64,000 bases of DNA from Candidatus Poribacteria bacterium (GCA_963665235.2 CAXXLX010000001.1:832001-896000); one strand, 5' to 3'; counted from the stretch's first letter, positions 12,866 through 31,875 are shown. Notes: generated by a model from the letters alone, not told the origin. Translations and numbers: made by a program.

Positions 12866-13972
12866 TTACCACTTCAACAAACCGGCATCGTTTTTATTAC
12901 TGAGTTTGCCGCTACGCACGACAGAGGTGAGAAATTCAATGATATCCAAAGCCCGTTTCAGGATTGCACTGAATGCTTGTTGCTGCCCCAGGCTATCAAC
13001 CCCGAAGTAATTAGCGATTTTTTGATAGTCGCTACCTTTTCGATGCCCACTACCCCTGGAGCGCAGCGTCTGAAGTTTTTGTAGGAAAGAGACTCGGCGA
13101 TCGGCATCTTCGACTGCATGGAAATCAAGGATTTCCCCAAGAATTTCAATGCTCCGTTTACCTTTCAGATTAACCCTCTCTGCTTCAGGCAAAAGTTGCT
13201 TTAACCCCTTTACATTTATTGATTCGATTAATATGGTTTGGAGATCCTGAACTAAATCATCAAAATGACACTGCTCATCATTAACCGGAATTCTCAGGCG
13301 TTGGAAACGGTACTCGTCACCAGAACCCAACGGTTTTAACAATTGCCAACCAAGGCATTCTTTGCATGCCTCTTGCAACTGTTCATAATTTTGTTTGAAC
13401 AAAATATCCGGCTGATCTGAACTTATACCATTTTTATTAATTATCCTATCATTACCGGTCGTTAGAAATGAAACGGAGAACGGAAGACACAAACTGGAAG
13501 TTTATGCTACAAGGAGGCACAAACTGGAAGTTTATGCTACAAGGAGGCACAAACTGGAAGTTTATGCTACAAGGAGGCACAAACTGGAAGTTTATGCTAC
13601 AAGGAGGCACAAACTGGAAGTTTATGCTACAAGAACGCACAAACTGGAAGTTTATGCTACAAGGAGGCACAAACTGGAAGTTTATGCTACAATAAAGAGA
13701 CATTTCCAATTAGAAATGGTATTACCCACTTTCCTTCGACCATCCGATCATGATAGGTTTCGCTCATATCCCCTTCTGGTGGAATATTATGAGCGCGCCA
13801 ATGTAATTGTTCCGTGTAAGGCAGATGTATCTAGGAAGTGTATCCTAGCGTTCTGCCAAGATAGTCTAAGAACACACAAACTTTGTCAGGGTGATGGTTG
13901 TCGATTTTGATGCTGCCCCACAGATTACAACTCACGATTGAATCCCTAACCGTGTATTTGCTAGGTTCGTTA
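12866..13972 (-). pseudogene. Hypothetical protein pseudogene, interrupted and truncated by TACCA-MITEs
   Basis: Removing 13426..13721 plus one TTA joins ...LPYTEQLHWRAHNIPPEGDMSETYHDRMVEGKWV to SSDQPDILFKQNY... in frame. There is a further frameshift near 13830, and the 5' end is replaced by a second MITE. Confidence 0.75.
13426..13721. mobile_element. TACCA-MITE carrying a 7-unit REP-B tandem array
   Basis: TIR TACCATTT...AAATGGTA, TSD TTA; units are CACAAACTGGAAGTTTATGCTAC with linker AAGGAGG. Confidence 0.9.
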
Positions 13973-14205
13973 TTAATTATTCTATCATTACCGGTTGTTA
14001 GAAATCAAACGGAGAACGGAAGACACAAACTGGAAGTTTATGCTACAATAAAGTGCACAAACTGGAAGTTTATGCTACAATAAAGTGCACAAACTGGAAG
14101 TTTATGCTACAATAAAGTGCCCAAACTGGAAGTTTATGCTACAAGAAAGTGCACAAACTGGAAGTTTATGCTACAAGAAAGAGACATTTCCAATTAGAAA
14201 TGGTA
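13971..14205. mobile_element. Left-truncated TACCA-MITE with a REP-B array
   Basis: Same leader and right end AATTAGAAATGGTA; linker AATAAAGTG. Confidence 0.8.
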
Positions 14206-14210
14206 TTATA

Positions 14211-14445
14211 ACGTGAGCTTGATAATAAATGTCCGTTTTCCCTAACCTCTATAAAGATATCGTCCTTGAGGAGCGGGAAACCGTTTGCCCGAATACTGGG
14301 ACTAAGAGGAAGGCAAAAACTGCTCCTTCTATAAAGATATCGTCCTTGAGGAGCGGGAAACCGTTTGCCCGAATACTGGGACTAAGAGGAAGGCAGAAAC
14401 CCCCTGTTTCTATAAACATATTGTCCCTAAGGAGCGGGGAACCTT
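14211..14445. repeat. ACG-MITE end followed by REP-C units (CTATAAAGATATCGTCC...GGGAC)
   Basis: ACGTGAGCTTGATAATAAAT terminus followed by repeated ~76-bp units. Confidence 0.7.
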
Positions 14446-14564
14446 TTTCCCGGTATTCCGACACACAGTCCGCTCCTCATTCGGTTTGCCAAAACATAAA
14501 ACGTAACTGTCATGATCATAGAAACACAGCTACACATAGAGACACTATAGGTTGAAAACAAAGC

Positions 14565-14605
14565 AAAACCCCACAAGGGATTTCAATCGTCTCTTGTGGG
14601 GTTTG
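14565..14605. terminator. Putative bidirectional intrinsic terminator
   Basis: AAACCCCACAAGGGA...TCTCTTGTGGGGTTT hairpin downstream of the 14669 gene. Confidence 0.55.
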
Positions 14606-14668
14606 TACAATTTTTACACACGCCTAGTAGCCCAAAGCTGTAGTAGCGGTAAATACCCTAGGAAATTA

Positions 14669-15487
14669 TCAATCGCGGCCGCGGCGTCTTCCTCTGCTAC
14701 GTTCCCGAAATTCTTTTATCATTTGTTCGCGTTGTTCACGGGAAGCACTCTCAAATCTCCGCCGCATCTCCATAACCTTCATCTCTGCCTGTTTTTTTGC
14801 GTTCTGTTCAGCGGCTTCCCTTGCTTTTCGCATCGCAGCGTCTCTAGAAGCACTAGATGAGGAGCTCCGGTTGTTATCACTCCGGCTGCTTTCTTCTCTA
14901 CTAGAGGAGCGTCCGCTGCTGCGGGATCCACTCGAGTTGAGAAACTGCATATTGCCTGTCCGAAGTGTTATATTCTCGCCGGCTTTATCCAACGTAACCT
15001 CTCGCTGCTTAATCTCTTTGACGACAGCCTCGCCGACTTTGTCACCAACGACTGCGGTATAAAATTGATTTGAGCGTCGCTCCAAGACAAATGCTTTGGC
15101 AACAGACCCGTTCGGATTGATGGCAGTGCCGATAAGCGCGTATTCTGGCTCTTTTCTCGGCGGAGTCCAACCGAGCGGTCGAAAGATATTGTTATCAATA
15201 ATCGCCCGATAAAACGCTTCACTGTCATTAGCTTTCTCGCCCCCGGAACGTTCTTTCTCCTGTGAGTTCGAAGCTTCTTGCCGATTGCGGAGCTTCTCCA
15301 TCTGCTGTCGCATTTGCTCCGGATTCGCCTTGCGGAGCTTCTCCATCTGCTGTCGCATTTGCTCCGGATTCGCCGCAATGCGCTCCAATTCTGCCCTATT
15401 CTGTGCATGGAGGTGGAAGCCGAACGCTAGCAGCAAAGCGACTATACCCCCAATTCCCAAAATGCTGAAGAGTTTTGAATATTTCAC
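14669..15487 (-). CDS. Membrane-anchored protein with a GspC/PilP-like domain
   Basis: N-terminal TM helix; NIFRPL..YALIGT..VGDKVG..VKEI..VTL pattern; in-frame 42-bp duplication (ANPEQMRQQMEKLR twice). Confidence 0.55.
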   Translation of the reverse strand: MKYSKLFSILGIGGIVALLLAFGFHLHAQNRAELERIAANPEQMRQQMEKLRKANPEQMRQQMEKLRNRQEASNSQEKERSGGEKANDSEAFYRAIIDNNIFRPLGWTPPRKEPEYALIGTAINPNGSVAKAFVLERRSNQFYTAVVGDKVGEAVVKEIKQREVTLDKAGENITLRTGNMQFLNSSGSRSSGRSSSREESSRSDNNRSSSSSASRDAAMRKAREAAEQNAKKQAEMKVMEMRRRFESASREQREQMIKEFRERSRGRRRGRD

Positions 15488-15782
15488 CGTAATCTCCTTG
15501 TACCTCAAAGGCATTTTTGTATGTATTAGACTATGTAAGTCTCAAAAAGGTTCATTTTTTTTTGTAAAAGTATTTGATTACCATAATTTTACCACAAAAA
15601 TTTGCGAATGTCAAATTTGCATTGTTTTCTTTTCAACCTTTGTGATATAATTAAAAATAAGTCGGTGCAATATATCGCCAAAGCGTCCCTTCTTCTGTAG
15701 GAGTGAGCACTCGAGCGCGACTTTCTGAAGTTAAGCAGGACGCTTGCACCAGTTAAATAGAATAGAAAAGGATTAATGTCTT

Positions 15783-16331
15783 ATGAAACGCCATAGTCAA
15801 AGTCAGAAATACGTTGCCCTGGTGTGCAGCTGTGCCCTTCTTTTTCTCTTAACGCTTGGGCAAGCGGATGCAGCGCGGCGGTCGCCTGCCTTAGCGATTA
15901 CGTTGTTTGTATCGGGCATGGGCTTCCAAGTTGGGAGTACCATGCTGAATTCCGCTGCGGAAACCCGTTATAATGAATATCTCAACACTGCAATTCAATC
16001 GGAAATTGCAAGCCACAAAGATGCAGTCATTGCGCGGCGAAATGCCAGTACTATCATGTCCCGCGTTGGTTTCGGCTGCGTCGGGTTGGCAGTGTTTCTC
16101 TCAATTTATAACCAACTTGCCTCCGCTGCCCCAGAGCCAGAACCGGAACCGGAACCGTTGTCCCAGGTACACCCGCTGATTAATGTGGGGACATATTCTT
16201 CAGCGAGCCTTATTTCGTCCCGTGTATCTCTAAGCAACAATAGACTCGTTGGGCTCTCTCGGTTCGGAATTCATCCACATTATGACTTCCAAACGAGACG
16301 TGCAAGTCTACAATTCCAACACCGTTTTTAA
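15783..16331 (+). CDS. Hypothetical exported/membrane protein
   Basis: RBS, signal peptide, C-terminal Phe; first gene of a three-gene run. Confidence 0.65.
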   Translation: MKRHSQSQKYVALVCSCALLFLLTLGQADAARRSPALAITLFVSGMGFQVGSTMLNSAAETRYNEYLNTAIQSEIASHKDAVIARRNASTIMSRVGFGCVGLAVFLSIYNQLASAAPEPEPEPEPLSQVHPLINVGTYSSASLISSRVSLSNNRLVGLSRFGIHPHYDFQTRRASLQFQHRF

Positions 16332-16340
16332 AGGAGAGAT

Positions 16341-17552
16341 TTGATGATTTTTTTTCAAAACCTCACACAACAATTCGGGGTAGGGAGGACATTCCTATTG
16401 AGCCTGCCTTTACTTCTCATGCTCTTGGGGTTAGCTGCATGCACAAATAGCGAAGATTTTGCGAACCCGCTTGACGCAGAAAATCTGCGGACATCCGGGG
16501 CGCCAGATGGACTCACGCTCTACCCCGGAGACAGAGAGATTCGTGTCACATGGACAGACACCGGACAATCGGGCATCAAAGCCTACCGTATCTATCGCCG
16601 TTCAATCAGCAACTCAGATGAACCCTTTGAGGTAGTTGGCACTGTTAATGCCCCGGCAAGCGAGTTTATAGACACTAACAATCTCGAAAATGACCGATTA
16701 GATGATTTTGGAAACGTTCTCGCGTACGAATACCGAATCTCATATATCGATATAAACGACGTTGAAACGCCTGACCCCGCGAATCTGCCCCAAACCGGCG
16801 ACGGTGAACCGATGCGGATCTGGAAAACCGCCAGTGCCACCCCGAGTATTGCACCGCCGGCACCAGACGTAACCATCGGGGACCCTGTTGACCTTGCTGT
16901 CAACCTTTTTTGGGAAAATTACGCGTTTCCCGCTGATTTCTCTATCTTCCAAATCTCCATCGCCCCGGACAGAGGCGAAGGCGAATCGCTGGTTTTTAGG
17001 CACGCCGCCGATATCAGCAGAGACGAAGAAAAACTTTACTATCTTGATGGTAATTTCCGGGAAGATGGCACGAAAAAAACATACCGAATCGCTGCTATAG
17101 ACCGATTCGGCGTGGAAGCCGTTACAATCGTCACAGCAGAATCCCCGAATCTTCCACCCAAACCACCCACAAACTTTGCGGTGTTTTGTTACCCGAGCTC
17201 CCTATTTACTGTCCGGTACGACTCCGTGTTACAATGGGATGCCAACCTTGAACCCGACCTGGATGGGTATCAAATTTATACGATAAATAATGATGGGGAA
17301 TTTATACCCCGGCCCGCGGCTAAAAAGGGGGAAACAACCTTGACAGTTATTGGTGAAGAACCCGTGCTCGTCGCCGGGAGCCCCTACCTTAGGCCCTATT
17401 TTATCGTTGCCTACGATAATACGCCCCGGCCCGATGGCATGATAGACACAAGTGAGAGAGTTGAAGCAACACTTCTTGCCAATTTCACGTTATTCGACCC
17501 AATTCCAGCAGAGCCTACGCCACCACCTCCCTCCGGCCCGAGCACACGATAG
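16341..17552 (+). CDS. Fibronectin type III-like repeat lipoprotein
   Basis: LAAC lipobox; FN3-like W...Y.IYR..Y.Y.I patterns. Confidence 0.7.
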   Translation: MMIFFQNLTQQFGVGRTFLLSLPLLLMLLGLAACTNSEDFANPLDAENLRTSGAPDGLTLYPGDREIRVTWTDTGQSGIKAYRIYRRSISNSDEPFEVVGTVNAPASEFIDTNNLENDRLDDFGNVLAYEYRISYIDINDVETPDPANLPQTGDGEPMRIWKTASATPSIAPPAPDVTIGDPVDLAVNLFWENYAFPADFSIFQISIAPDRGEGESLVFRHAADISRDEEKLYYLDGNFREDGTKKTYRIAAIDRFGVEAVTIVTAESPNLPPKPPTNFAVFCYPSSLFTVRYDSVLQWDANLEPDLDGYQIYTINNDGEFIPRPAAKKGETTLTVIGEEPVLVAGSPYLRPYFIVAYDNTPRPDGMIDTSERVEATLLANFTLFDPIPAEPTPPPPSGPSTR

Positions 17553-17613
17553 GCAAAGGTGAGAAAGTTGAAACCAAACATCCACAATTTGAATAGACAG
17601 AAAAGGAAAGATT

Positions 17614-18555
17614 ATGTACCTTAAACACCTAACATTCATTAGCATCGTTTTAGTTTTAATCGGAATCGGGGGACAGATTTTCGCACAATTGCCACCGACC
17701 CCCCAACTTAGCACTATCCAAACCGCTGAACCCCTCGGAAAAGGTGGGTCCACTACAATATTTAGCATGTTCAAGTATTCCAAAGTTGACCTTGCCCCTG
17801 AACATACACAAAATGTAGACATCGGTGAATTTGAGGAATCCCATTACGTAACACTCGAAACAGAGACGTTCCTCATCCCGGTCCGATTCATCTACGGGGT
17901 AGGCGAACACCTCGACTTTACGCTCGGTGCCACGTTTTCAACCGGTGGTGTCAGAAAAGTTATACTCGATTACTACAACACAGGAGACACGCTGACCGGT
18001 GCAAAACGGGTTTACGACCAGCCCCTGTATGATGGACTCATCGGCCTCAAATACAACATCAAACCCGATCGGAATGATGGCCTTCCGAGTATCTCTGTCG
18101 GTGGAGATGTACAGTTTGGCTTCACAGCGGACGACCGGCTGAACGCGGATGGCGAATTCCTTGACCATAGTCCTGCTGATGGATTCCCATTTTTCGGGGT
18201 CAATACCTATATCGCTGGCACGCAAAGAGTCGGAAGCCTCTTCAAACTCCACGGCGGCATAGGAGCTTTCCTACTGTCAAAAGCCCTTGGGACCGGCGAC
18301 TCTTTTACGCTCAATTGGCAAGCCGGTGGTGAAATGGCGGTTGGGGACAATATGTGGCTCGTCGCCGATTTTACCCGCGAACTGCCTTATGCAGGAATCA
18401 ACCTCGCAAACATGATTGGGGTTTCATTTCGCTATGAAATTTCCAACACACTCGCATTCCAAGTTGGATACAACACCCTCCCCGGATTTCAGTTCAATCT
18501 GATACTCGGCGGCGATAAGGCGCAAGCACTTGAAGGTGAAGATATACTGTTTTAA
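17614..18555 (+). CDS. Putative outer-membrane beta-barrel protein
   Basis: Signal peptide and amphipathic beta strands. Confidence 0.6.
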   Translation: MYLKHLTFISIVLVLIGIGGQIFAQLPPTPQLSTIQTAEPLGKGGSTTIFSMFKYSKVDLAPEHTQNVDIGEFEESHYVTLETETFLIPVRFIYGVGEHLDFTLGATFSTGGVRKVILDYYNTGDTLTGAKRVYDQPLYDGLIGLKYNIKPDRNDGLPSISVGGDVQFGFTADDRLNADGEFLDHSPADGFPFFGVNTYIAGTQRVGSLFKLHGGIGAFLLSKALGTGDSFTLNWQAGGEMAVGDNMWLVADFTRELPYAGINLANMIGVSFRYEISNTLAFQVGYNTLPGFQFNLILGGDKAQALEGEDILF

Positions 18556-18706
18556 CGCGAGTTTGAAAAAAAGTTTTGACTTAGAGCGTTCTGTGGTAGT
18601 TTTAGCAAAAACCAGCACAAACTAGGAAGTTTATGCTACAATTATACCGCTTTTTTCGCGATGAAAAAGGTTTAGAGCAAACGGATATTTATTATCAAGC
18701 GCACGT
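18555..18706. mobile_element. 152-bp ACG-family MITE
   Basis: TSD TGTTTTA, overlapping the stop codon of the upstream gene. Confidence 0.9.
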
Positions 18707-18759
18707 TGTTTTAAACCAACCCCTATATCAGCCCCATATCAGGAAGACAGGAGCAATCC

Positions 18760-19209
18760 ATGCGTGCTGTAATTCAACGGGTTAAATCTGCTGCTGTTAC
18801 CGTGGAGGGTGAAGTCGTCTCCGCTATTGGTGAAGGCGTGCTTATCTTCCTCGGTATCGCCCAGGACGATACAGAAGCAGAGTTAGCTTATGTCGCAAAC
18901 AAGGTCGCCACGCTCCGCATCTTTGAGGACGAGGCGGGCAAAATGAATCGTTCACTTCTCGACACCGGCGGAGCTGCCCTAGTTGTTTCACAATTTACGC
19001 TCTACGGTGATTGCCGCAAAGGGCGACGGCCCAGTTTTATTAACGCCGCTCGCCCTGAAGCAGCAAAGCCACTCTATGAACAGTTCATCACCGCCTTAAA
19101 ACAGCACAATATCCAAACACAAGGCGGCACCTTTCAAGCGATGATGGAGGTGCAACTCATTAATGACGGGCCCGTTACCATTCTATTGGATAGCGACAAA
19201 CAGTTTTAA
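18760..19209 (+). CDS. dtd: D-aminoacyl-tRNA deacylase
   Basis: [13 protein letters not shown] and NDGPVT motifs. Confidence 0.97.
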
Positions 19210-19210
19210 C

Positions 19211-19603
19211 GCTCTTCCGTCAAATCCCATGCTTTAGCTTGCGGGATGTAGACGGCGCATAAGTTGAAATTTTAATTTGACTTTCGCCAAAAACTGTGGT
19301 ATAATCAAACTAGCACTTTTGGATAGCATTCTCACCCCGTGCATAACCCTGTGCGGGTGCTATCCCCCACTTGTGAGAAGGTGTGTAGTGTTAGTGCGAA
19401 ATCACTCAAAACATTTCGGGATACACCGACGATGTATGTGGAGTAGAATCCCAGCCAACTGTGTGTATCCTCCAAATTCTATTCTAAAACGGGCAGGCTT
19501 AGCTGCCCTAAGTGGAGACGACATAAGACGGGTGAACCCCCAGGGCGAAACGCTGTTGTCTAGGAAGCACAAGCCCCCACCTTTAGGTGGTGGGTACTAT
19601 GAC
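19211..19603 (+). mobile_element. ORF-less IS200/IS605-type element with promoter and omegaRNA-like 3' end
   Basis: CTTTAG-loop hairpins at both ends; TTGACT-N17-TATAAT; GGAGAC...AAGCCCCCACCTTTAGGTGGTGGG...TGAC right end; core shared with 60335..61214. Confidence 0.7.
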
Positions 19604-19626
19604 AAGCAAGAAAGCCGAGAAAGTGC

Positions 19627-20904
19627 ATGCGTGAAAAAGGAGGGGACCACAGGCGAAACTTCGTTTTCGCGTTGCTGCAAGGCACCTTCATGCGAATCAA
19701 TCTCACCTTTGCAGATGCCACAACAGTCCTCGCCGCTTTTATCTCTAGACTCACGGAATCAGAGCTGATGGTCGGGTTGACCGGTTCAATGTTGACAGCT
19801 GGGTGGATGTGGCCCCAGCTGTTGATGTCAAATCTGCTGGAGCATCGCCCTCGCAAAATGCCGTTTTATGCCCTCGGCATGAGCCTCCGCGTATTAGCTT
19901 GGTTTGCCATATTTTGCTGCACGGTCGGAATCGGCACACAGAATCCGAGCTTACTTTCTACCTGTTTTTTGGCACTCTACTTTTTATCTACCTCCGCCAT
20001 GGGCATTTCGACGTTGCCTTACATGGACATCATCTCTAAGGCCATAGCCCCGAATCGGCGAGCTCGCTTTTTTAGCCTACGTCAATTGTGCGGTGGATTT
20101 TTTGCTATCTGGGTAGGGTTTCTCGTCCGTGCAGTCCTCCGTAATGATGTCCAAACCTCCCTCGAATTTCCGAATAACTACGCCCTCCTTTTTATCTGTT
20201 CCATGAGTGCTGCCCTCCTCTCATTTATCAGTTTCCTCGGCGTACGCGAACCGATTCACCCGGTTCAGCCGACACGCCAACCCCTATGGCAACATCTAAA
20301 GCAGGGGCCGCACTTCCTACGGACAGACCGAAATTATCGCCGGTTTCTCTTCTTTCGTATCTGTTTACATTTCTCTGGTATGGCAACCCCGTTCTACACA
20401 ACATACGCCCTCCGTGAATTAGGCGTTTCTGAAGCGACTATCGGATTTTTCATCGTATGCTCCGCATTGAGCGGTGTCATTTCAAATGCGGTATGGGGGT
20501 ATATCGGCGAAAAACATGGCGTGCGCTGGCTGTTGATTATCACCGCAGGGCTCATGATATTTCCACCGGCAATCGCCTTCTTTTCCGGGATGCTATCGGG
20601 TACTCTCATGCTACTTACCTATTTCCTGATTTTCGCAATCGGGGGTATTTTAACGAACGGTATGATGGTCGGGTTCATGGCGTATATGCTGAACATCGCA
20701 CCGCCTCGGCAGCGGCCCAGTTACATCGGTTTCATGAACACGTTGCTGCTCCCCGCCAGTTTTGCCCCTGCGGTAGGGGGACTCCTTGTACCGCGTATCG
20801 GTTATCAATGGTTATTTACGATATGCTTCTGCATCTGCCTTATCGCCTTCTACATCGCGACCGGGCTACAAGAAATCGTGCGCGAGCATGAAAATATAGA
20901 GTGA
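19627..20904 (+). CDS. MFS transporter
   Basis: About 12 hydrophobic segments; WGYIGEKHG and APP..RPSY motifs. Confidence 0.85.
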   Translation: MREKGGDHRRNFVFALLQGTFMRINLTFADATTVLAAFISRLTESELMVGLTGSMLTAGWMWPQLLMSNLLEHRPRKMPFYALGMSLRVLAWFAIFCCTVGIGTQNPSLLSTCFLALYFLSTSAMGISTLPYMDIISKAIAPNRRARFFSLRQLCGGFFAIWVGFLVRAVLRNDVQTSLEFPNNYALLFICSMSAALLSFISFLGVREPIHPVQPTRQPLWQHLKQGPHFLRTDRNYRRFLFFRICLHFSGMATPFYTTYALRELGVSEATIGFFIVCSALSGVISNAVWGYIGEKHGVRWLLIITAGLMIFPPAIAFFSGMLSGTLMLLTYFLIFAIGGILTNGMMVGFMAYMLNIAPPRQRPSYIGFMNTLLLPASFAPAVGGLLVPRIGYQWLFTICFCICLIAFYIATGLQEIVREHENIE

Positions 20905-21902: not shown

Positions 21903-24221
21903 GTGATCAAAAGGAGCTTATTCTCTATTTTCGCACTGTTATATATCGTTTCAATGCCCTATCTACTGAGCAGCTTTGCCCAAGACTACACACAATGGGA
22001 GCTGCCTGAACATGCCATAGCGCGTCTCGGCAAAGGGCGGATTGAAGATATACAGTACTCCCCGGATGGAACTATACTCGCAGTCGCGACCACAATCGGT
22101 ATTTGGATATATGATACTGAGACGTATCAGGAAAGTGCCTTGCTGACGTATCAGGAAAGTGCCTTGCTCACACTGAACAAGAAAGGGGTCAAGGAAATTT
22201 TATTCGATACTGAAGGGACAACCCTCGCTAGCGTGCATAGGCGCGGGGGCATTACACTCTGGGATGTTGGAATGCAAAGCCCCAGGAAAACACTCATGAC
22301 CGGTTCTTCTCTTAACCATATCATGCGATTCAGTCCAGATGGACGCATATTTGCAAATGGGGGTTACGAAGAGGTTCTACTATGGGATGCGGTTACAGGT
22401 GAGTCTAAAAACATCCTCAAAGCGCATAAGAAATTTGTTCAGTGTTTAGCATTCAGTCCAGATGGGCAAACCCTCGCGAGTGGAGGTGAAGACCAGACTA
22501 TTCACCTGTGGGATGTTGTTACCGGGAAACGCAAACAAACCATTACAATGCCTAAAGGGACGGTCACCGATATATCTTTCAGTCCGGACGGTAACACGTT
22601 TGCAAGTGTAAGCGATAACAAAACAATCCATTTGTGGGATACAACTACATGGAAACATAAAAAACAGGTAGTAAATCAGGGTGTGATTACCGAACAGGTC
22701 GAAGACAAAGAACGGATTGAAAGTGTGTTCTTCAGTCCGGACGGTAGCACGTTTGCAGCTGTGAGCACTGACACAACAATTCGCTTATGGGATACAACAA
22801 CAGGGACGCTCAGGCAAACCTTCATAGAGGAAAATGCAGAACAAGCAGGCAATGAAAGAGAGATAGAAAACGTATTGTTCAGTCCGGATGGGCAATCAAT
22901 TTCTAGTGTGAGTGACTATGGAAAAATCCGGTTATGGGACGTTGCGACAGGCAAACGTAAACGTTTGAGCGAAGATGCAGGTTATGTTACGAAGGCAGCA
23001 TTTAACCACAATGGGAGGACACTCGCGACTGGAACTTATAATGGTACCATTCGTTTATGGGACGTTGCGACAGGTAAACACAAAAAAACAATCCCAAATT
23101 TCGGCGCGCAGCACCTAGGTACGTCTCGTCTGGATCCGCCTGATATCAATAACATATCACTGAGTCCAAATGGAAGTAAGTTTGTGGCTGGCAATCCAGC
23201 TGAAACTATCTACTTCTGGGATTCAATCACAAGGCAGCAACAACCCATAATGGGACAGACACATCCTGCCGAAAAAGATATATGGTTCAGCGGGGTGTTG
23301 TTCAGTCCAGACGGGGACACCTTGGCAAGTTGGAGTTACAACTATACAACTATTCATCTATGGAATATCACCAGCAAACGTAAGCGAACCCTTACAGGAC
23401 ATACAGGTAAAATCAAACGTGTCACTTTTAGTCCAGATGGGAAAACGCTTGCAAGTTGGAGCCTTGCCCAAGACAAAACCATCCGTCTATGGGATGTCGC
23501 AACAGGAAAGCACAAGCGAACCCTTACAGGACATACAGAATTGGTCGAGAGTGTCATTTTCAGTCCTGATGAACAGATGCTTGTCAGTGGCGGGAGCGAT
23601 GGCACGCTCTATTTGTGGGAGATTGTCCTACAGGAATACAAGAGGTATCCCTTCACAAATCAACGTTTTGCGAACGAGCAAAAGGCACATGCGGTTGCTG
23701 TCCCTATCCTATCGTTTAACTCAGATGGGAGTGCACTTGCCAGTGGTAGTAAAAGCGGTTCCATCTATCTATGGGATGTTGGTACAAGGGCAATCAAACA
23801 AACATTCAAAGGACATACGGATACTATCTTAAGCATATCGTTCGGTCCCGATGGGCAGGAAATCGCGAGCACAAGCAAAGACGCTACTGCCCGTTTGTGG
23901 GATGTCGCAACAGGTAAACAAAAACAAGCAATCGCCGGATATGGGGGTTCTGTATATGAGCGTTCTGTATGGCATGTGCACTTCTCTTCAAGTGGGCTGC
24001 CGCTAGCAAGCGAGGTTAAAGGCGAGATTGGAGGGGTTGATGACGATAAGATTCGCCTGTGGGATTTACGCACAGGACAGCTTAAAAAAATGCTTACGGG
24101 GCATGCTTCATGGGTTAAAAATCTTTCGTTCAGTGCTGATGGGAAAACGATTGCAAGTCTGAGTTTTGATGCTACAGTGATTTTGTGGGACCTAACATCC
24201 GTAATGCAAGCTGCAGATTAG
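21903..24221 (+). CDS. Secreted WD40 repeat protein
   Basis: Many GH...FSPDG...LWD repeats; signal peptide. Confidence 0.92.
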   Translation: MIKRSLFSIFALLYIVSMPYLLSSFAQDYTQWELPEHAIARLGKGRIEDIQYSPDGTILAVATTIGIWIYDTETYQESALLTYQESALLTLNKKGVKEILFDTEGTTLASVHRRGGITLWDVGMQSPRKTLMTGSSLNHIMRFSPDGRIFANGGYEEVLLWDAVTGESKNILKAHKKFVQCLAFSPDGQTLASGGEDQTIHLWDVVTGKRKQTITMPKGTVTDISFSPDGNTFASVSDNKTIHLWDTTTWKHKKQVVNQGVITEQVEDKERIESVFFSPDGSTFAAVSTDTTIRLWDTTTGTLRQTFIEENAEQAGNEREIENVLFSPDGQSISSVSDYGKIRLWDVATGKRKRLSEDAGYVTKAAFNHNGRTLATGTYNGTIRLWDVATGKHKKTIPNFGAQHLGTSRLDPPDINNISLSPNGSKFVAGNPAETIYFWDSITRQQQPIMGQTHPAEKDIWFSGVLFSPDGDTLASWSYNYTTIHLWNITSKRKRTLTGHTGKIKRVTFSPDGKTLASWSLAQDKTIRLWDVATGKHKRTLTGHTELVESVIFSPDEQMLVSGGSDGTLYLWEIVLQEYKRYPFTNQRFANEQKAHAVAVPILSFNSDGSALASGSKSGSIYLWDVGTRAIKQTFKGHTDTILSISFGPDGQEIASTSKDATARLWDVATGKQKQAIAGYGGSVYERSVWHVHFSSSGLPLASEVKGEIGGVDDDKIRLWDLRTGQLKKMLTGHASWVKNLSFSADGKTIASLSFDATVILWDLTSVMQAAD

Positions 24222-24418
24222 GTCGGGTTGTTTGTCAGAATCGCGGAGGGCGCGGAGAACACAGAAAACGCGGAAAATGCTACGGGTCAGACAGGGTTAT
24301 TTAGTTTTCCAGCCTCCCTTTATAGAAGGGAAACCCTTCATTGCCCGTCGATGCCCGAACTATTTATCTAAACTTCATTAAGCTCGATATGTCGCTAGCA
24401 GCTTAGAGAGGTGTCAAA

Positions 24419-26380
24419 GTGAAAACGAGAATGCGTTCAATTTTTTTAGTACTATGTATTGTTTCCCCTATTGTAATTCTGTGCACTATTTTTTTTACGC
24501 GATTTCAACGCGAGACACTCCTTCACGAATCACCACAAAATCAGCTGCCTGAGGGCGTGAAATTGCGTATTGGTAAAGGCAGTGTAAATGATATAGCGTA
24601 TTCTCCAGATGGCTCAATATTAGCAGTTGCAACCACTATCGGTATTTGGTTTTATGATACTTCCACCGATACAGCGCGCACACTGCTTACAGGGGATAGC
24701 CGCGGTATTGCAAGCATTTCATTCAGTCCGGATGGAAAAACACTTGCTGGCGGAGGGGGGGATAGGACAATCTATTTGTGGGATGTTGCCACGGGCAAAC
24801 GTAAGCAATCCTTTGTAGGGCATGATGGGACCATTCTTAAGGTATTGTTTAGCCGAGATGGAAATACACTTGTAAGCGCGGGTATATACCGTACAAATCT
24901 GTGGGATGTTACCACCGGCACACATAGGAGAAAACACTATCGCGGTATGGATCATGGGGATGCGTTATGGTTTAACCGCGCTAGCGGAATAAGGGCATCT
25001 GCGCGTAGCGCAGATATTCGTCTGTCTAAGCTAATCACCGGAGAAGAAAAGGGAACACTGAAGGGACATAAGAAAAATATCAAAAGCTTGGCATTCAGTT
25101 TGGATGGACAGATGCTTGCAAGTGGAAGTTACGATAAAACCATCCGCTTATGGGATGTCGCCACCGGAACACATAAGAAAACCCTCAAAGGGCATAAGAA
25201 AAGTATCAATAGCATCACATTCAGTCCTGATAAACAGCTGCTGGCAAGTGGGAGTAGAGATGAGACTGTCCGCGTGTGGGATACCGCTACAGGCCGGCTC
25301 AAGAATACTTTTAAAGCAGATATGGCTGATGTACAACACGTGGCATTCAGTCCTGATGGGCAAACGCTTGCAAGTTGGAGCAACGACCATATTCTCCACT
25401 TGTGGGATATCACTACTGGCAAACACAAGAGAGCTATCACGGGACATATAGCTCCTGTTGCTGCCGTGTCGTTTAGTCCGGATGGAACGACACTTGCAAT
25501 TGCCGCATCTAAAGAGATTCTACTGTGGGATGCAATCGAAGGGATACACAGGAAAACCTTACTTGGACATGAAGGGGCAGTGGATTGTATAGCCTTCAGC
25601 CCGAATGGACGTTCGATTGGTAGTGGAAGTGTGGATGAGACTGTCCGCGTGTGGGATGTTGCTACTGGCAAACGTAAGAAAACCATAAAAGAACATATTT
25701 CCGGACGAGATATTTATTTTTTTGTCAGAAACGTAGCGTTCAGTCCCGATGGACAAATTCTCGCTAGCTCAAACAAGGACAAGACAATCCGATTGTGGGA
25801 TGCTGCTACAGGCAAACACAAAAAAACTTTGACAGGACATACAGGCGTTGTCAAGACGCTTGCGTTCAGTCCCAACGGACGTACTATTGCCAGTGGAAGC
25901 AGAGCAGACGAGAAAGCGGTCCGATTATGGGATGTTGCCACCGGCGAACACAAAAGAACGCTCCACAGTCATACATCAGGTATTTCAAGCGTGACGTTTA
26001 GTCCAGATGGGAGTATCCTTGCTACTATGGACCAAAATAACGTAAAATTGTGGGATGCCGCTTCAGGTGACCCCTTAAAAACGCTCACCGTAAAAACGCC
26101 CAGAGAACATATCTCTTTTGTTCAGACTTTATTGGGTTTATCGAGTTTATCGTTCGCGCCGGATGGTCGAACGCTTGCAAGTGCAGGTTGGGATACAGCT
26201 GTCCGACTATGGGACGTTTCAACAGGCACACACTACAAAACCCTCACAGGACACAAGCAAGGAGTCTATTGTGTCCTGTTCAGTCCTGATGGACAGACGC
26301 TTGCAAGTGGGAGTCCGGATGGCACAGTATTACTATGGGATATCCCTGCTATAATCAACGCAACAGATGGCGCAAAGTAA
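24419..26380 (+). CDS. WD40 repeat protein
   Basis: Many WD40 repeats; N-terminal TM/signal segment. Confidence 0.92.
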   Translation: MKTRMRSIFLVLCIVSPIVILCTIFFTRFQRETLLHESPQNQLPEGVKLRIGKGSVNDIAYSPDGSILAVATTIGIWFYDTSTDTARTLLTGDSRGIASISFSPDGKTLAGGGGDRTIYLWDVATGKRKQSFVGHDGTILKVLFSRDGNTLVSAGIYRTNLWDVTTGTHRRKHYRGMDHGDALWFNRASGIRASARSADIRLSKLITGEEKGTLKGHKKNIKSLAFSLDGQMLASGSYDKTIRLWDVATGTHKKTLKGHKKSINSITFSPDKQLLASGSRDETVRVWDTATGRLKNTFKADMADVQHVAFSPDGQTLASWSNDHILHLWDITTGKHKRAITGHIAPVAAVSFSPDGTTLAIAASKEILLWDAIEGIHRKTLLGHEGAVDCIAFSPNGRSIGSGSVDETVRVWDVATGKRKKTIKEHISGRDIYFFVRNVAFSPDGQILASSNKDKTIRLWDAATGKHKKTLTGHTGVVKTLAFSPNGRTIASGSRADEKAVRLWDVATGEHKRTLHSHTSGISSVTFSPDGSILATMDQNNVKLWDAASGDPLKTLTVKTPREHISFVQTLLGLSSLSFAPDGRTLASAGWDTAVRLWDVSTGTHYKTLTGHKQGVYCVLFSPDGQTLASGSPDGTVLLWDIPAIINATDGAK

Positions 26381-26976
26381 TACCATTTTTATTAATTATC
26401 CTATCATTACCGGTCGTTAGAAATGAAACGGAGAACGGAAGACACAAACTGGAAGTTTATGCTACAAGACCGCACAAACTGGAAGTTTATGCTACAAGAC
26501 CGCACAAACTGGAAGTTTATGCTACAAGACCGCACAAACTGGAAGTTTATGCTACAACAAACTGGAAGTTTATGCTACAAGACCGCACAAACTGGAAGTT
26601 TATGCTACAAGACCGCACAAACTGGAAGTTTATGCTACAAGACCGCCCAAACTGGAAGTTTATGCTACCGCACAAACTGGAAGTTTATGCTACAAGACCG
26701 CACAAACTGGAAGTTTATGCTACAAGATGCTACAAGGAGGCACAAACTGGAAGTTTATGCTACAAGAGGCACAAACTGGAAGTTTATGCTACAAGGAGGC
26801 ACAAACTACAAGACCGCACAAACTGGAAGTTTATGCTACAAGACCGCACAAACTGGAAGTTTATGCTACAAGACCGCACAAACTGGAAGTTTATGCTACA
26901 AGGCACAAACTGGAAGTTTATGCACAAACTGGAAGTTTATGCTACAATAAAGAGACATTTCCAATTAGAAATGGTA
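26381..26976. mobile_element. TACCA-MITE with a long REP-B array
   Basis: TSD TAA, where the left copy is the WD40 stop codon; linker AAGACCG. Confidence 0.9.
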
Positions 26977-27229
26977 TAATATGAAATAGGTCGCGTGCGA
27001 AGCACGCTCCTACAGAAGAGGTTTGTTGAAAAAACCGGCGGAAAATATCGAGAACTAAATGGCCCTGGCAATCCAGCACTGCGTCAGAAACCTATTTAGA
27101 ATCACAAACTCTTGCTAATTGCTAAATTGGCTATTGGCTTATGGCTATTGGAAACCTATGGCAAGAGGAAGAGGTTTTTGACGCGCTTCAAAAACTGTGC
27201 ACCTTCACAACGTCTTTTGCTAATTGCTA

Positions 27230-27381
27230 ACGCGAGTTTGAAAAAAAGTTTTGACTTAGAGCGTTCTGTGGTAGTTTTAGCAAAAACCAGCACAAACTAG
27301 GAAGTTTATGCTACAATTATACCGCTTTTTTCGCGATGAAAAAGGTTTAGAGCAAACGGATATTTATTATCAAGCTCACGT
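27230..27381. mobile_element. 152-bp ACG-family MITE
   Basis: TSD TAATTGCTA, inside a heptamer repeat tract. Confidence 0.9.
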
Positions 27382-27408
27382 TAATTGCTAATCGCTAATC
27401 GCTAATTG

Positions 27409-28314
27409 CTAAACTGTGCGACACAGTTCAATAATCCGTTCAGCCCCATCAACAGGATTGAAGCTATAACCGCCTAACGCAATCAGAGCTGCGTTCCCCT
27501 TTGGCGGATTGTCAAGACAACTTGGCGCGAGGACAAAGAGAGGTATACCCATCTCAAGTGCCGTTTTGGCAGTGCTGAACGTCCCGCTGTTCTTTCCCTG
27601 TTCATCCCGTTCAGGACCGGACTCAATCACAACAACCGCTTTAGAGAGAGCACACAGTAGCTCATTCCGAATTATTCCGTTGCGTGCTAACCACTTTACA
27701 GTAGGGGCAAACTGTGACACTGAAAGTATATCCCGTTCCCAATTGAATTCCGTGAACGCCTCTTTGTAACGCAATTCCTGAATGCCGTAAGGCAGCACAA
27801 TTGTCGTTGTACCGCCAGCCGCTAACGCGCCTAAGTGTGCCGCTGAGTCTACCCCCTGGGCATATCCAGAGACAACATCTATGCCTACCGCTGCAAGTTT
27901 ACCCGCCAGCTCTTCCGTAATGCGAACCCCTTTATCTGACACCTGCCGCGCCCCAACAATAGTAACGCTATCCGACATAAGACGTTTTCGTTGCCCTTTA
28001 GTAAATAGGACAGGTGAAATTTCAAGGAGATGCGGCAGAAAATCGGGGTGTTCTGGATAGATAATATCAACCCCTTGCTCTTTGAGCTGCGCGTATTCCG
28101 CGTACACCTTTTCCCTATCCGCGGCGCGAATTCTGCCGTTAAGGATTTTCGCCAATTTCGGAGACAGTGCAGCGAGCTCGTCTGGATTAAACAGCACCAT
28201 TTGAAGCTCGGGGTGCCCTGTTTCCAATATCTTCGCAATAGAAGCCAGCCGTTTAGCACCTATACCGCGTGTCCTAAAGAGCCGGAACCAGAAATAATCT
28301 CTATCAATTCTCAT
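27409..28314 (-). CDS. dprA: DNA-processing protein DprA (no C-terminal wHTH domain)
   Basis: IVGAR, VVSGYAQGVDSAAH and RN..I...S..VVVIE motifs. Confidence 0.85.
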   Translation of the reverse strand: MRIDRDYFWFRLFRTRGIGAKRLASIAKILETGHPELQMVLFNPDELAALSPKLAKILNGRIRAADREKVYAEYAQLKEQGVDIIYPEHPDFLPHLLEISPVLFTKGQRKRLMSDSVTIVGARQVSDKGVRITEELAGKLAAVGIDVVSGYAQGVDSAAHLGALAAGGTTTIVLPYGIQELRYKEAFTEFNWERDILSVSQFAPTVKWLARNGIIRNELLCALSKAVVVIESGPERDEQGKNSGTFSTAKTALEMGIPLFVLAPSCLDNPPKGNAALIALGGYSFNPVDGAERIIELCRTV

Positions 28315-28606
28315 TTTTTTCCTTAATTGGATAAAAAACACTCTTCATGGTATACTAATTTGGAAAGGTGATTCGCATTGTCCCGTATTACATAAACATA
28401 TCTTCCCGACAAGACTGAGTAAGAATACCTTAAAATTGATAAAGTGTCAAGATTTTTTGGCGGAGGTTCAATGATTCAAACAAACGTTGTCGATTTTCTA
28501 AAGCAGGTTTCCCGTGGAAAACACACAAAATAGGCACATTCTATAGGATCAGGTTAATTTCGTATTAAAACTGACTAATTTCAGTAACGAGAGGAGGATT
28601 ATAGAA

Positions 28607-29215
28607 ATGGCGTATAGCAATTTTACCTTAGACACGGTAGAGGAAACATTCCAACTTGAAAAGACTGAAACCGCAGGGGTCTTCGCTGGCATTGAACCGG
28701 TAGAGCCGAGCGAGGTCTTTATAATGGAGTTGGAAAAAAGGGTGCCGTTAGCGGTTGCTCTTAAGACAGAGAAAGCGCGGTCGGAATTAATCGTTGTCAA
28801 CGTTCTCGTTGAACTTCGGGAGCACTTTGAGCGGCGCATCAGTTTTTTTTCGGGAATCGACCTCAATGTCGATGCCGAAAACGGGCTAACAGGCGTATGT
28901 GACTTTTTAGTCAGCCTCTCACCGGACCTGCTATATTTGAAGACACCGATTGTCATCATTATTGTTCAGGCGAAAAATGCTGATGCAACAAATGGCTTAG
29001 GGCAGTGTGTCGCGGAGATGCTCGCCGCCCAACGTTTTAACGCAGAAAGAGGCAATGACATTCAACGCGTTTACGGCACTACTACCACCGGCACCGAATG
29101 GCTTTTCCTCAAATTAGAGGGCCAAAAACTCCATATTGATATGATGGGGTATCAGATTACGCAGTGCGACAAAATCCTCGGTATCCTTTCAAGCATGGTC
29201 GAACAAAAGGCATAG
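28607..29215 (+). CDS. PD-(D/E)xK nuclease-fold protein, copy 1 (QAK variant)
   Basis: EKARSE, G.CDF, IIVQAK and GQC.AEM motifs. Confidence 0.7.
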   Translation: MAYSNFTLDTVEETFQLEKTETAGVFAGIEPVEPSEVFIMELEKRVPLAVALKTEKARSELIVVNVLVELREHFERRISFFSGIDLNVDAENGLTGVCDFLVSLSPDLLYLKTPIVIIIVQAKNADATNGLGQCVAEMLAAQRFNAERGNDIQRVYGTTTTGTEWLFLKLEGQKLHIDMMGYQITQCDKILGILSSMVEQKA

Positions 29216-29264
29216 GGTAGTAGGCACACACCGACGTGCCTTTCACTACGGAGGGACTAAACAG

Positions 29265-29870
29265 ATGGCGTATAGCAATTTTACTTTAGACACGGTAGAG
29301 GAAACATTCCAACTTAAAAGGAATGAAACCGCAGGGGTCTTTGCTGGCATTGAACCGGTGGAGCCGAGTGTAGAGCTCACAAAGGATTTGGTAAAAAAGG
29401 TGCCGTTAGCTATCGCTATCGGAACAGAGAAGGCTCGGTCGGAACTGATTGTTGCCGGCCTTCTTGTTGAACTTCGGGAGCACTTTAAGCGGCGCATCAG
29501 TTTTTTTTCGGGCATCGACCTCAATGTCGATGCCGAAAACGGGTTAACAGGTGTCTGTGATTTTTTAGTTAGCCTCTCACCTAATCAGTTTAGTCTGAAA
29601 GCCCCGGTTATCATCATTGTTGAGGCGAAAAATGCTGACCCGAAAAATGGCTTAGGGCAGTGTGTCGCGGAGATGCTCGCCGCCCAACGTTTTAACGCAG
29701 AAAGAGGCAATGACATTCAACGCGTTTACGGCACTACAACCACTGGCACCGAATGGCTTTTCCTCAAATTAGAGGGCCAAAAACTCCATATTGATATGAT
29801 GGGGTATCAGATTACGCAGTGCGACAAAATCCTCGGTATCCTTTCAAGCATGGTCGAACAAAAGGCATAG
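29265..29870 (+). CDS. PD-(D/E)xK nuclease-fold protein, copy 2
   Basis: CDF...VEAK...GQC motifs. Confidence 0.72.
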   Translation: MAYSNFTLDTVEETFQLKRNETAGVFAGIEPVEPSVELTKDLVKKVPLAIAIGTEKARSELIVAGLLVELREHFKRRISFFSGIDLNVDAENGLTGVCDFLVSLSPNQFSLKAPVIIIVEAKNADPKNGLGQCVAEMLAAQRFNAERGNDIQRVYGTTTTGTEWLFLKLEGQKLHIDMMGYQITQCDKILGILSSMVEQKA

Positions 29871-29919
29871 GGGAGGAGGCACACACCGGCGTGCCGTTCA
29901 CTACGGAGGGACTAAACAG

Positions 29920-30525
29920 ATGGCGTATAGCAATTTTACCTTAGACACGGTAGAAGAAACATTCCAACTTGAAAAGACTGAAACCGCGGGGGTCTTTGCT
30001 GGCATTGAATTGGTGGAGCCGAGCGAGGCACTTACAAAGGAGTTGCAAAAAAGGGTGCCGTTAGCTGTCGCTATCGGAACAGAAAAAGCGCGGTCGGAAC
30101 TGATTATTGTCAACGTTCTCGTTGAACTCCGGGAACAGTTTGAGCGGCGCATCAGTTTTTTTTCGGGCATCGACCTTAATGTCGATGCCGAAAACGGACT
30201 AACAGGCGTATGTGACTTTTTAGTCAGCCTCTCACCGGACCTTCTATATTTGAAGACACCTGTCATCATCATTGTTGAGGCGAAGAACGCTGACCCGAAA
30301 AATGGGTTAGGGCAGTGTGTCGCAGAGATGCTCGCCGCACAACGTTTTAACGCAGAAAGAGGCAATGACATTCAGCGCGTTTACGGAACTACGACCACTG
30401 GCACGGAGTGGCTTTTCCTCAAATTAGAGGGACAAAAACTCCACATCGATATCAATAGTTATCATATTAGTCAATGTAGCACAATCCTCGGTATCCTTTC
30501 AAGCATGGTCGAACAAAAGGCATAG
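29920..30525 (+). CDS. PD-(D/E)xK nuclease-fold protein, copy 3
   Basis: CDF...VEAK...GQC motifs. Confidence 0.72.
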   Translation: MAYSNFTLDTVEETFQLEKTETAGVFAGIELVEPSEALTKELQKRVPLAVAIGTEKARSELIIVNVLVELREQFERRISFFSGIDLNVDAENGLTGVCDFLVSLSPDLLYLKTPVIIIVEAKNADPKNGLGQCVAEMLAAQRFNAERGNDIQRVYGTTTTGTEWLFLKLEGQKLHIDINSYHISQCSTILGILSSMVEQKA

Positions 30526-30617
30526 GAAGGAAAAAATGAAAGATTCGGGATGTGTTCACACGAAAGAATAACACCTAACACGGAATGCTGGCGTTACGAG
30601 AAAGGCAGGTATTTATT

Positions 30618-31325
30618 ATGGGCAATTTTTGTCACGACAAAGGCTGTGAACTTGAAGGGCTCCGCGAACGGCAATCCAAAACACTATGGATTGTGCTTGG
30701 TATTAACGGAGCCATGTTCTGCTTGGAATTGATTATTGGTTTCCTTGCAGGTTCAGTGGCGTTACAAGCCGATTCGCTTGATATGCTGAGCGATACTTTG
30801 GTTTACGGTTTCAGTCTCTATGCAATTGGTAAAAGTAGTCGCTGGCGTGCAGGTTCAGCTATGCTTAAAGGGAGTATTATGGCAATCTTTGGCATCGGCG
30901 TGTTGTTCCAGAGCGGTTATAAGTTCATCGCGGGCGGTACGCCAGAGTCAAATCTCATGTTTTTTATGGGTGCGCTCGCCTTGGTTGCCAACGCGACTTG
31001 TCTGCTTCTTTTAGCGAGACACAAAACAGATGATTTAAATATGCACTCAACGTGGGTGTGTTCTCGCAATGATATTATCGCGAACACAAGCGTACTTTTA
31101 GCAGCAGGCCTCGTTGCTTTTACGCAATCCAAGCTGCCGGACTTAGTAGTGGGTTTACTCATCACAATTATCTTTCTCAAGTCCGCGAGTGCTATTCTGA
31201 GAGCATCGTATAGAGAATTGCGTCAGCCCATCTCACACCCTTCTGAGCCCACTATTCCAAAATTTTTATCCATGTCAGAGCTGTGTGCAGCAGGGACCTG
31301 TCCAGCGAATGCCTGTCACTGTTAA
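30618..31325 (+). CDS. Cation diffusion facilitator family transporter
   Basis: SVALQADSLDMLSD and DDLNM.S.W.CSRND motifs. Confidence 0.88.
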   Translation: MGNFCHDKGCELEGLRERQSKTLWIVLGINGAMFCLELIIGFLAGSVALQADSLDMLSDTLVYGFSLYAIGKSSRWRAGSAMLKGSIMAIFGIGVLFQSGYKFIAGGTPESNLMFFMGALALVANATCLLLLARHKTDDLNMHSTWVCSRNDIIANTSVLLAAGLVAFTQSKLPDLVVGLLITIIFLKSASAILRASYRELRQPISHPSEPTIPKFLSMSELCAAGTCPANACHC

Positions 31326-31339
31326 GGTTTATGAGATAA

Positions 31340-31875
31340 TACCATTTTTATTAATTATTCTATCATTACCGGTTGTAGAAATAGAAATGGAAACGGAGAA
31401 CGGAAGACCCAAACTGGAAGTTTATGCTACGAAGAAGTGAACTGGAAGTTTTTATGCGAAGAAGTGCCAAACTGGAAGTTTATGCTACGAAGAAGTGCAC
31501 AAACTGGAAGTGCTACCAAACTGGAAGTTTATGCTACAAGAACGATGCCCAAACTGGAAGTTTATGCTACGAAGAACAAACTGGAAGTTTATGCTACGAA
31601 GAAGTGCACAAACTGGAAGTTTATGCTACAAGAACAAACTGGAAGTTTATGCTACGAAGAAGTGCACAAACTGGAAGTTTATGCTACGAAGAAGTGCCCA
31701 AACTGGAAGTTTATGCTACGAAGAAGTGCACAAACTGGAAGTTTATGCTACGAAGAAGTGCCCAAACTGGAAGTTTATGCTACGAAGAAGTGCCCAAACT
31801 GGAAGTTTATGCTACCAAACTGGAAGTTTATGCTACGAAGAAGTGCACAAACTGGAAGTTTATGCTACGATAAAG
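31340..31875. mobile_element. TACCA-MITE left end with a REP-B array; right end missing
   Basis: TAA|TACCATTTTTATT leader; linker GAAGAAGTG. Confidence 0.8.

Follow-up and report, generated by a model that had tools for sequence, protein, structure and literature searches.

Along a 64,000-nt stretch of the genome of a sponge symbiont, Candidatus Poribacteria (GCA_963665235.2; G000:C1:832001-896000 of a 5.31-Mb assembly in four contigs; hereafter, the window), one short hairpin recurs in tandem arrays inside otherwise similar elements, which raises the question of what moved the elements and what multiplied the hairpins within them. An earlier note on this DNA had proposed a two-tier system, namely a MITE (miniature inverted-repeat transposable element), bounded by terminal inverted repeats (TIRs) and a target site duplication (TSD) and moved by a DDE transposase, and a separate process that expands in place a repetitive extragenic palindrome (REP) tagged with GTAG. 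Analysis of the whole assembly and of 40 related genomes shows that the pattern seen in the window is far beyond chance and bears out the outline of a MITE shell with separate expansion in place; the expansion, however, is not specific to this shell, being found likewise in a second MITE-like family and in an unrelated GTAG hairpin, REP-A. The reading that we favor, and consider probable, is that of a MITE moved by a DDE-type enzyme in which an array of hairpin and linker has grown locally, the whole being selfish DNA.

The MITE family and its insertion sites

The five copies in the window, which the earlier note had recognized by a common leader of about 60 bp, were all recovered where it had placed them, on the plus strand, and have the same build: a leader of about 61 nt that starts with TACCATTTTTATTAATTAT, 23-nt units (plus strand, CACAAACTGGAAGTTTATGCTAC) arranged head to tail with short linkers, and a 31-nt tail that finishes with AATTAGAAATGGTA. 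Three copies are complete, starting with TACCATTT and finishing with AAATGGTA, and the TTA or TAA duplications that had been claimed for them are present. Copy 1 (13426-13721, 296 bp) has a 61-nt leader, seven units joined by the linker AAGGAGG (five times) or AAGAACG (once), a 31-nt tail and flanks TTA/TTA; copy 3 (21063-21677, 615 bp) has nine units, the linker AATAAAGTG, fragments of an IS630-family element within the array and flanks TAA/TAA; copy 4 (26381-26976, 596 bp) has 16 units, mainly the linker AAGACCG, and flanks TAA/TAA, of which the left TAA is the stop codon of a WD40 gene (24419-26380). Copy 2 (13971-14205) is truncated on the left and lacks TACCATTT but retains five units with the linker AATAAAGTG and an intact tail followed by TTA, and copy 5 (31340 to about 31875) has an intact leader preceded by TAA and 14 units with the linker GAAGAAGTG but lacks the tail. 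AAGGAGG, AATAAAGTG, AAGACCG and GAAGAAGTG are the dominant linkers at the respective loci, and the array periods in the window are 30-32 bp according to Tandem Repeats Finder.

The unit, exemplified by the one at 13488-13510 on the minus strand, reads GTAG-CATAAACT-TCC-AGTTTGTG, that is, GTAG followed by an 8-nt arm, a 3-nt loop and a second 8-nt arm. The GTAG strand, taken as single-stranded DNA, forms a stem of eight pairs at -3.2 kcal/mol, a value matched by 3 of 200 shuffled sequences; the fold of the plus strand contains one mismatch and reaches -2.1 kcal/mol, as do 31 of 200 shuffles. Being a palindrome with GTAG at one end, present in high copy and extragenic, the unit qualifies as a GTAG-REP.

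A search of the whole genome with the 20-nt core of the unit (at most two mismatches) yielded 1227 matches in 236 clusters. According to short-query BLAST, the genome has 146 full ends of the leader type and as many tail ends; 131 pairs have the correct order and orientation, and 15 leaders and 16 tails are unpaired. Since six of the 131 pairs lie within stretches that are present twice in the assembly, there are about 125 independent loci. The paired elements are 112 to 2879 bp long and contain 1 to 27 units, with no favored number, whereas the leader and the tail are constant; 17 near-identical copies of 112-127 bp have one unit, and the basic form is an element of 112-116 bp comprising a leader, one GTAG-tagged 23-nt hairpin and a tail. 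The TIRs, TACCATTT and AAATGGTA, are perfect over 8 nt and imperfect up to about 16 nt in this genome and are more symmetric in relatives, where TACCATTTCTA is found at both ends.

The flanking trinucleotides are identical in 122 of the 131 paired elements (64 TTA, 55 TAA, 2 TAC and 1 TGA) and unequal in the remaining nine; thus, the TWA duplications seen in the window extend to the other copies of the family, TTA or TAA accounting for 119 of the 122 identical flanks. Empty sites, which had also been anticipated, exist as well. When the two 30-nt flanks were joined with one trinucleotide kept, and an ungapped match of at least 12 nt was required on each side of the junction, paralogous empty sites with a single copy of the trinucleotide were found for 43 of the 122 elements, several of them identical over 57 of 57 nt; the reason for such matches is that other dispersed repeats are frequent targets of the element. 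For example, the site of copy 3 reads gggacTAA|...|TAAgaattgggg, and the next copy of the host repeat, which is empty and lies 0.7 kb downstream, reads gggactaagaattggg (target gggacTAAgaattggg). A TA duplication of the IS630 type was considered and rejected in favor of the simpler 3-bp reading, since with TA the ends of the element would have to be different at TAA and at TTA sites. We conclude that the element is a non-autonomous transposon, a MITE bounded by TIRs and a 3-bp TWA duplication.

No element lies inside an open reading frame (ORF) of 150 or more amino acids (aa). The GC skew is too flat to place a replication origin. The orientation of the elements is not clustered along the chromosome (runs test, P = 0.28) and shows no link to the strand of neighboring genes: 0.465 of the nearby coding bases are on the same strand, and the four possible arrangements relative to genes occur 44, 37, 30 and 16 times, with no preferred orientation. 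The orientation and the intergenic location fit double-stranded insertion by a DDE-type enzyme rather than a strand-specific, single-strand mechanism for the shell. The window copies follow an MFS transporter gene, a WD40 gene and a cation-efflux gene, or precede a DprA-like gene and a long UvrA-like gene. No transposase or Cas protein is encoded among the 15 neighboring ORFs scanned, and the ORFs that cross the arrays are repeat read-through only, that is, the MITE has no coding capacity.

The redundancy of the assembly takes several forms. Contig C3 (34 kb) repeats C1:999349-1032654, C4 (17 kb) repeats C1:3774884-3794300, and a 33.6-kb stretch is common to the ends of C1 and C2. The duplicated segments, which differ in the number of MITE units and in insertions of insertion sequences (IS), represent genuine duplicates, episomes or else alternative haplotypes within a mixed population.

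Growth of the arrays

The hairpin and 4-12 adjoining nucleotides form a module that is repeated head to tail up to 27 times per locus, each locus having its own linker; the repeated part is the hairpin module only, never the leader or the tail. Where an element has at least four units (91 elements), its dominant linker makes up, on average, 0.75 of the linkers, compared to a mean of 0.23 (maximum, 0.26; 1000 trials) when linkers are shuffled among elements, in agreement with the locus specificity that had been noticed in the window. Altogether, 41 distinct linkers are dominant across the 91 arrays. In some arrays, two linkers alternate 5:5 or 3:3, which points to duplication of two-unit blocks, and many arrays hold partial or odd units.

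The duplicated portions of the assembly provide direct comparisons of array length: one locus has two units in one version and five in the other, with identical flanks, another has six and seven, and a further pair is identical save for three bases after the last unit, TAC in one and AAG in the other. Several loci share one linker at near-equal length, such as copy 1 of the window and C1:536026, both of 296 bp with AAGGAGG, and 41 dominant linkers serve 91 arrays; hence, expanded elements also seem to transpose as such.

A comparison with related genomes shows that arrays are almost confined to this genome. The one-unit form of 116 bp has matches in 18 of the 40 related genomes, comprising all nine genomes of one genus and all nine of another, and in none of the 22 others. 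The copies in relatives are built like those described here, with flanks of TTA or TAA and with hairpin loops that vary. Junctions consisting of a unit, 4-16 nt and another unit number 779 in this genome, compared to five, three and one in three relatives and zero in the other 37. Array formation is a trait of the lineage of this genome. Together, the locus-specific linkers, the different numbers of units in two versions of one locus and the one-unit copies in relatives support a process of array growth that is both local and separate. The shell is modular, since elsewhere in Poribacteria quite different GTAG palindromes follow identical ends and an identically placed TGTAG. Simple pair counts over 13 distinct modules from other genomes show all eight Watson-Crick pairs in eight modules, seven in four and six in one, with six different loops; in one subfamily of modules, a stem position is changed on both sides.

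Amplification acts on GTAG hairpin repeats in general and is not specific to this shell. Of the 236 unit clusters, 134 belong to paired elements and 35 have a leader or a tail within 120 nt, so that 169 lie in or beside a shell; the 67 clusters without a leader or a tail hold 152 of the 1227 units. Most of these 67 represent a second MITE-like family with its own ends and a related unit, which has one-unit and multi-unit forms and locus-specific linkers, and a few are arrays without a shell. A genome-wide run of Tandem Repeats Finder (period of at least 15, at least 3.5 copies) detected 258 arrays: 96 of the MITE unit, all with one consistent architecture, eight of the related unit CACAATCTGGAAGATTATGCTAC, 21 of REP-A, 34 of a CTATAAA type and 99 others, which include further hairpin variants as well as coding repeats (WD40, TPR). 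The periods of the 21 REP-A arrays range from 30 to 67 bp, which means that each of these arrays has its own linker.

Several other repeats occur in the window. A third type (CTATAAAnATAnCGnCCC...GGGnCTA, periods of 50 to 154 bp) is present at 14248-14452, 52089-53094, 56376-56742 and 63878-64000 and also flanks an IS200-like Y1 transposase gene at C1:1178437. An array of 17 copies of an 18-bp unit, GATGTCCTCGGTGGGACC, occupies 60829-61136; the same word is found beside IS200/IS605-type elements elsewhere in the genome. Single variant hairpins on the minus strand at 18613-18638 and 27288-27313 (TAGCATAAACTTCCTAGTTTGTGCTG followed by GTTTTTGCTA, 11 pairs, with a terminator-like score) belong to another family with a related hairpin.

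The mover, the RAYT gene and the competing explanations

On the basis of the TWA duplication alone, the partner of the MITE would be IS5-like. This part of the earlier proposal fared less well than the transposon itself because no autonomous IS with TACCATTT ends was found in this genome. All 17 pairs of TACCATTT and AAATGGTA ends that are 0.6-4 kb apart and have equal flanks turned out to be MITEs, adjoining MITEs or MITEs with nested elements. None of the twelve repeat families or loci inspected after self-comparison of the genome, which include IS200/IS605-type TnpB, RRXRR-domain (IscB-like), two IS630-family and ISAs1-like elements, has the MITE ends. The domains PF13340 and PF13359 have no matches in this genome; PF01609 has eight, and none of the four elements with this domain whose ends were read (the ISAs1-like family, a 1.4-kb IS nested in a MITE, and the loci C1:2245568 and C1:4356515) ends in TACCATTT. 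In the relatives that carry the MITE, multicopy elements with PF13586 (IS5-type) and PF13359 (Harbinger-type) end in GAACTCATA... and AGACATTATAATGA..., respectively, not in the MITE ends. A scan with the 16-nt end, one genome per species, returned at least 108 stretches; 51 of the 80 listed loci bear the title Candidatus or uncultured Poribacteria. Among the 53 matches in these 51 loci, only short elements were recognized; one locus that looked longer, the sole one checked for ORFs, encodes no transposase. These searches leave room for a partner in genomes outside their range.

Two candidates were rejected. The 1.4-kb stretch with MITE ends at C1:3547208-3548602 is not an autonomous parent but a MITE whose leader has been entered by an unrelated IS, now decayed; this IS encodes a 430-aa DDE_Tnp_1 transposase and has ACTAAAGTTTGGACAAT ends. 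In an IS630-family element that was considered as a partner, the TACCATTTTTATCAATAAC motif is internal, about 50 nt from the true, CTAG-bounded end.

Other mobile elements intersect with the hairpins or with the window in different ways. GTAG hairpins from at least three different families carry in their loop an IS630-family element of 1.27 kb with DDE_3 and helix-turn-helix domains (C2:852862-855368 and seven other copies). One copy has a second IS630-family element nested in it, and in most copies a 1-nt duplication, not TA, fits the junctions. Fragments of this element are interleaved with partial units in copy 3 of the window (21160-21190 and 21436-21633). Three related families of 1.3-kb elements (about ten, seven and four copies; e.g., C1:672969-674253 and C1:120253-121577) encode proteins of 370-390 aa, one of which matches the RRXRR domain; their MFVPV...PLMP start is one that we take to be typical of IscB-like proteins. 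At 40147-41953, the window contains a repeated element of 1.8 kb, with four copies in the assembly, that encodes a 529-aa protein of TnpB-like appearance; a shorter relative of 1.27 kb is nested in the family.

Under the reading that we favor, a DDE-type transposase encoded elsewhere would move the shell, and the linker would be fixed when the foot of the hairpin first undergoes a local duplication. Whole units, sometimes as two-unit blocks, would then be gained or lost through slippage in replication or through unequal exchange of sister copies, and expanded elements could transpose again, carrying the array along. We regard the whole as selfish DNA, with possible side effects on neighboring genes through promoter-like and terminator-like motifs.

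Several observations weigh against this reading. First, an autonomous element with matching ends was neither found in this genome nor recognized at the 51 listed Poribacteria loci, one of them checked for ORFs. Second, joining the local tail start to the leader end reproduces exactly no more than 11 of 89 dominant linkers; most linkers are thus not accounted for by one simple duplication of the sequence at the locus, and plain slippage does not predict this result either. Third, in the 51 arrays with a 12-nt spacer between cores, positions 1, 3, 8 and 9 of the 12 vary (entropy of 0.9-1.7 bits) and the others are near-fixed; the variable positions adjoin the hairpin on both sides, which plain slippage does not predict. 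Fourth, three relatives (G013, G015 and G023) have many copies of the element in complete or nearly complete assemblies of one to four contigs, and yet contain zero or one junction; assembly collapse therefore does not explain the difference for these three, and slippage driven by the hairpin is not enough to account for arrays having arisen in this genome only. Finally, the array lengths come from one assembly that has duplicated segments and an estimated contamination of 5.65%.

The strongest alternative, which retains the same MITE shell and to which we assign a clearly lower likelihood, is that the arrays are made in trans by a REP-specific enzyme, the most likely candidate being the REP-associated tyrosine transposase (RAYT) of this genome. 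With DNA in single-stranded form, such an enzyme would cleave at the GTAG hairpin and join the end to a copy next to it or to a sister copy, so that every round would duplicate the hairpin and a short flank. Among the 13 matches to PF01797 in the genome, most of which are IS200/IS605 transposases, there is one RAYT (NCBIfam NF047646, 136 bits against a cut-off of 80). Its gene, which encodes 157 aa, lies outside the MITE; the 5' part occupies positions 1-188 of the window on the minus strand, with the remainder located before the window. Next to this gene, also on the minus strand, is a REP-A array of 26 copies with a period of 34 (205-1082), and the far side of the gene, before the window, has a 5-copy REP-A array in the opposite orientation. 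REP-A is a hairpin different from that of the MITE, but the two have a common layout of GTAG, 8-nt arm, 3-nt loop and 8-nt arm.

The inverted REP-A arrays on both sides of the gene are in line with an amplifying role of RAYT, and so are the repetition of the hairpin module alone, never the leader or the tail, the formation of arrays with locus-specific linkers by several unrelated families of GTAG hairpins, and the different GTAG palindromes that occupy the same position of the shell in other Poribacteria. Linker variation at both edges of the hairpin is what would be expected of sites of cutting and joining, and a study of REPs (PMC3733652) notes clusters of them that are tandem with flanking DNA and discusses processing by RAYT. 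The earlier note had looked to a RAYT flanked by the MITE hairpin; this did not materialize, the hairpin being absent within 900 nt of the Y1-transposase genes at all 11 loci inspected, with the RAYT gene flanked by REP-A instead. RAYT homologs are present in 28 of the 41 genomes searched, some of which have the MITE and no arrays, and the presence of RAYT was accordingly rejected as a marker of arrays across these genomes, there being no clean separation; RAYT presence alone thus does not explain the arrays. One relative in particular, G007 (a draft in 120 contigs), has both the MITE and a RAYT with 64% identity, yet no array junction, and the REP arrays beside RAYT genes in relatives are short, with only two to six copies. 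The specific version in which a hairpin-specific enzyme, most likely RAYT, would act in trans on GTAG hairpins wherever they are located, including those inside a DDE-type MITE, by site-specific cutting and rejoining at both hairpin edges is rather unlikely. If it were true, two unrelated transposition systems would cooperate, with the MITE spreading the REP and the REP enzyme amplifying it, and the variable bases at the hairpin edges would be scars of the RAYT reaction.

It is quite improbable that the arrays are selected functional elements, be it stacked terminators or RNA stabilizers, mobile promoters or arrays of sites for a DNA-binding protein. On the minus strand, many units score as terminator-like, with a 9-pair stem followed by a T-rich linker, and the end of the MITE tail together with the duplicated TAA or TTA forms an outward promoter-like site at 26952-26980 and 14181-14209 (GAGACA, 17 nt, TATAAT or TATTAT, with the TG of an extended -10; 10 of 12 positions at 26952-26980), although all these are consensus matches only. 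The stem is kept and the loop varies among the 13 modules from other genomes, and effects on transcription are described for BrickBuilt (PMC4596501) and for BOX (PMC3049150). The absence of a preferred orientation relative to genes and the spread of 1 to 27 units without a favored number speak against selection for such functions, as does the lack of an Rfam match at the gathering score in the window region 12500-32500.

The remaining alternative, that the arrays are assembly artefacts or a CRISPR-like array, is very hard to sustain despite the partial or odd units in many arrays, the redundant assembly segments and the superficially CRISPR-like succession of leader and repeats, given the uniform architecture of 96 arrays, the fact that contigs from independent runs contain the same junctions with the element, the lack of Cas proteins among the 15 neighboring ORFs scanned and, above all, the absence of unique spacers, by which the CRISPR reading is already refuted. 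The public short-read contigs (four runs, window region 13000-32000) end about 25 nt inside the element and do not span the arrays.

Comparison with known systems

How REP sequences spread and cluster is still an unsettled question, and MITEs with internal minisatellites have been described few times (BOX and BrickBuilt). In the genome analyzed here, many independent arrays, linkers that mark their origin, relatives with one-unit elements and a RAYT gene alongside make both the rate and the mechanism of array growth testable, including the choice between ordinary slippage and a hairpin-specific enzyme; the same setting makes the action of RAYT on foreign hairpins testable. On the practical side, short-read assemblies of Poribacteria break at such arrays, which could be of use in marking strains.

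Tourist-type MITEs, which go with PIF/Harbinger transposons, and some IS5-family groups have short TIRs and 3-bp TTA or TAA duplications, as does the present family; the difference is that no IS5- or Harbinger-type element with ends matching this MITE was found. The BOX elements number about a hundred in a 2-Mb Firmicute genome, and their boxB module, of 45 bp, has neither a GTAG-tagged hairpin nor a variable linker. In the description by Croucher et al. (2011; PMC3049150), BOX of Streptococcus pneumoniae has boxB in tandem, in a number that varies, between boxA and boxC, with greater length variation in longer arrays, for which slippage and unequal crossover are discussed as mechanisms. The likeness to the present family is that of a composite, MITE-like, intergenic element with fixed end modules and a variable, self-folding middle module whose length varies between versions of a locus; BOX differs from this MITE in its target duplication and in its candidate transposase (ISSpn2-like ends).

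The resemblance to CRISPR, which the earlier note had drawn while rightly pointing out that there are no unique spacers, is superficial, and the analogy is wrong: the linkers are 4-12 nt long and repeat within a locus.

GTAG-tagged REPs, those of Cyanobacteria included, form clusters, some of which, according to Di Nocera et al. (2013), are tandem with flanking DNA of variable length and are linked to processing by RAYT (PMC3733652). The MITE hairpin, as a 23-nt palindrome of this class, and REP-A are similarly arranged in tandem with flanking DNA; unlike these REPs, the MITE hairpin is a built-in module of a transposon with TIRs and a TSD, spreads mainly with the shell (169 of the 236 clusters) and has no RAYT beside it.

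Together with BOX and the REP clusters, BrickBuilt of Porphyromonas gingivalis is among the closest known elements. In the account by Klein et al. (2015; PMC4596501), it has a 23-nt unit, repeated 1 to 22.8 times between a leader and a tail, is present in 19 copies and has short inverted ends that resemble those of the IS5 family. The two families share the succession of leader, tandem 23-nt unit and tail, the inverted-repeat ends, the lack of an internal transposase and the intergenic location. In BrickBuilt, the same account indicates, the units abut without a linker, only 4 of the 19 copies have both ends, and the duplications are inconsistent (CT, GAAA, AAAAA), whereas the present family has 131 paired copies, a clean 3-bp TWA duplication, a GTAG hairpin as the unit and locus-specific linkers. 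The design is thus known from other bacteria, and the family described here, which is unusually large, combines known features: a clean TWA-duplicating MITE with a GTAG REP as its middle module, amplified on a large scale in one lineage.

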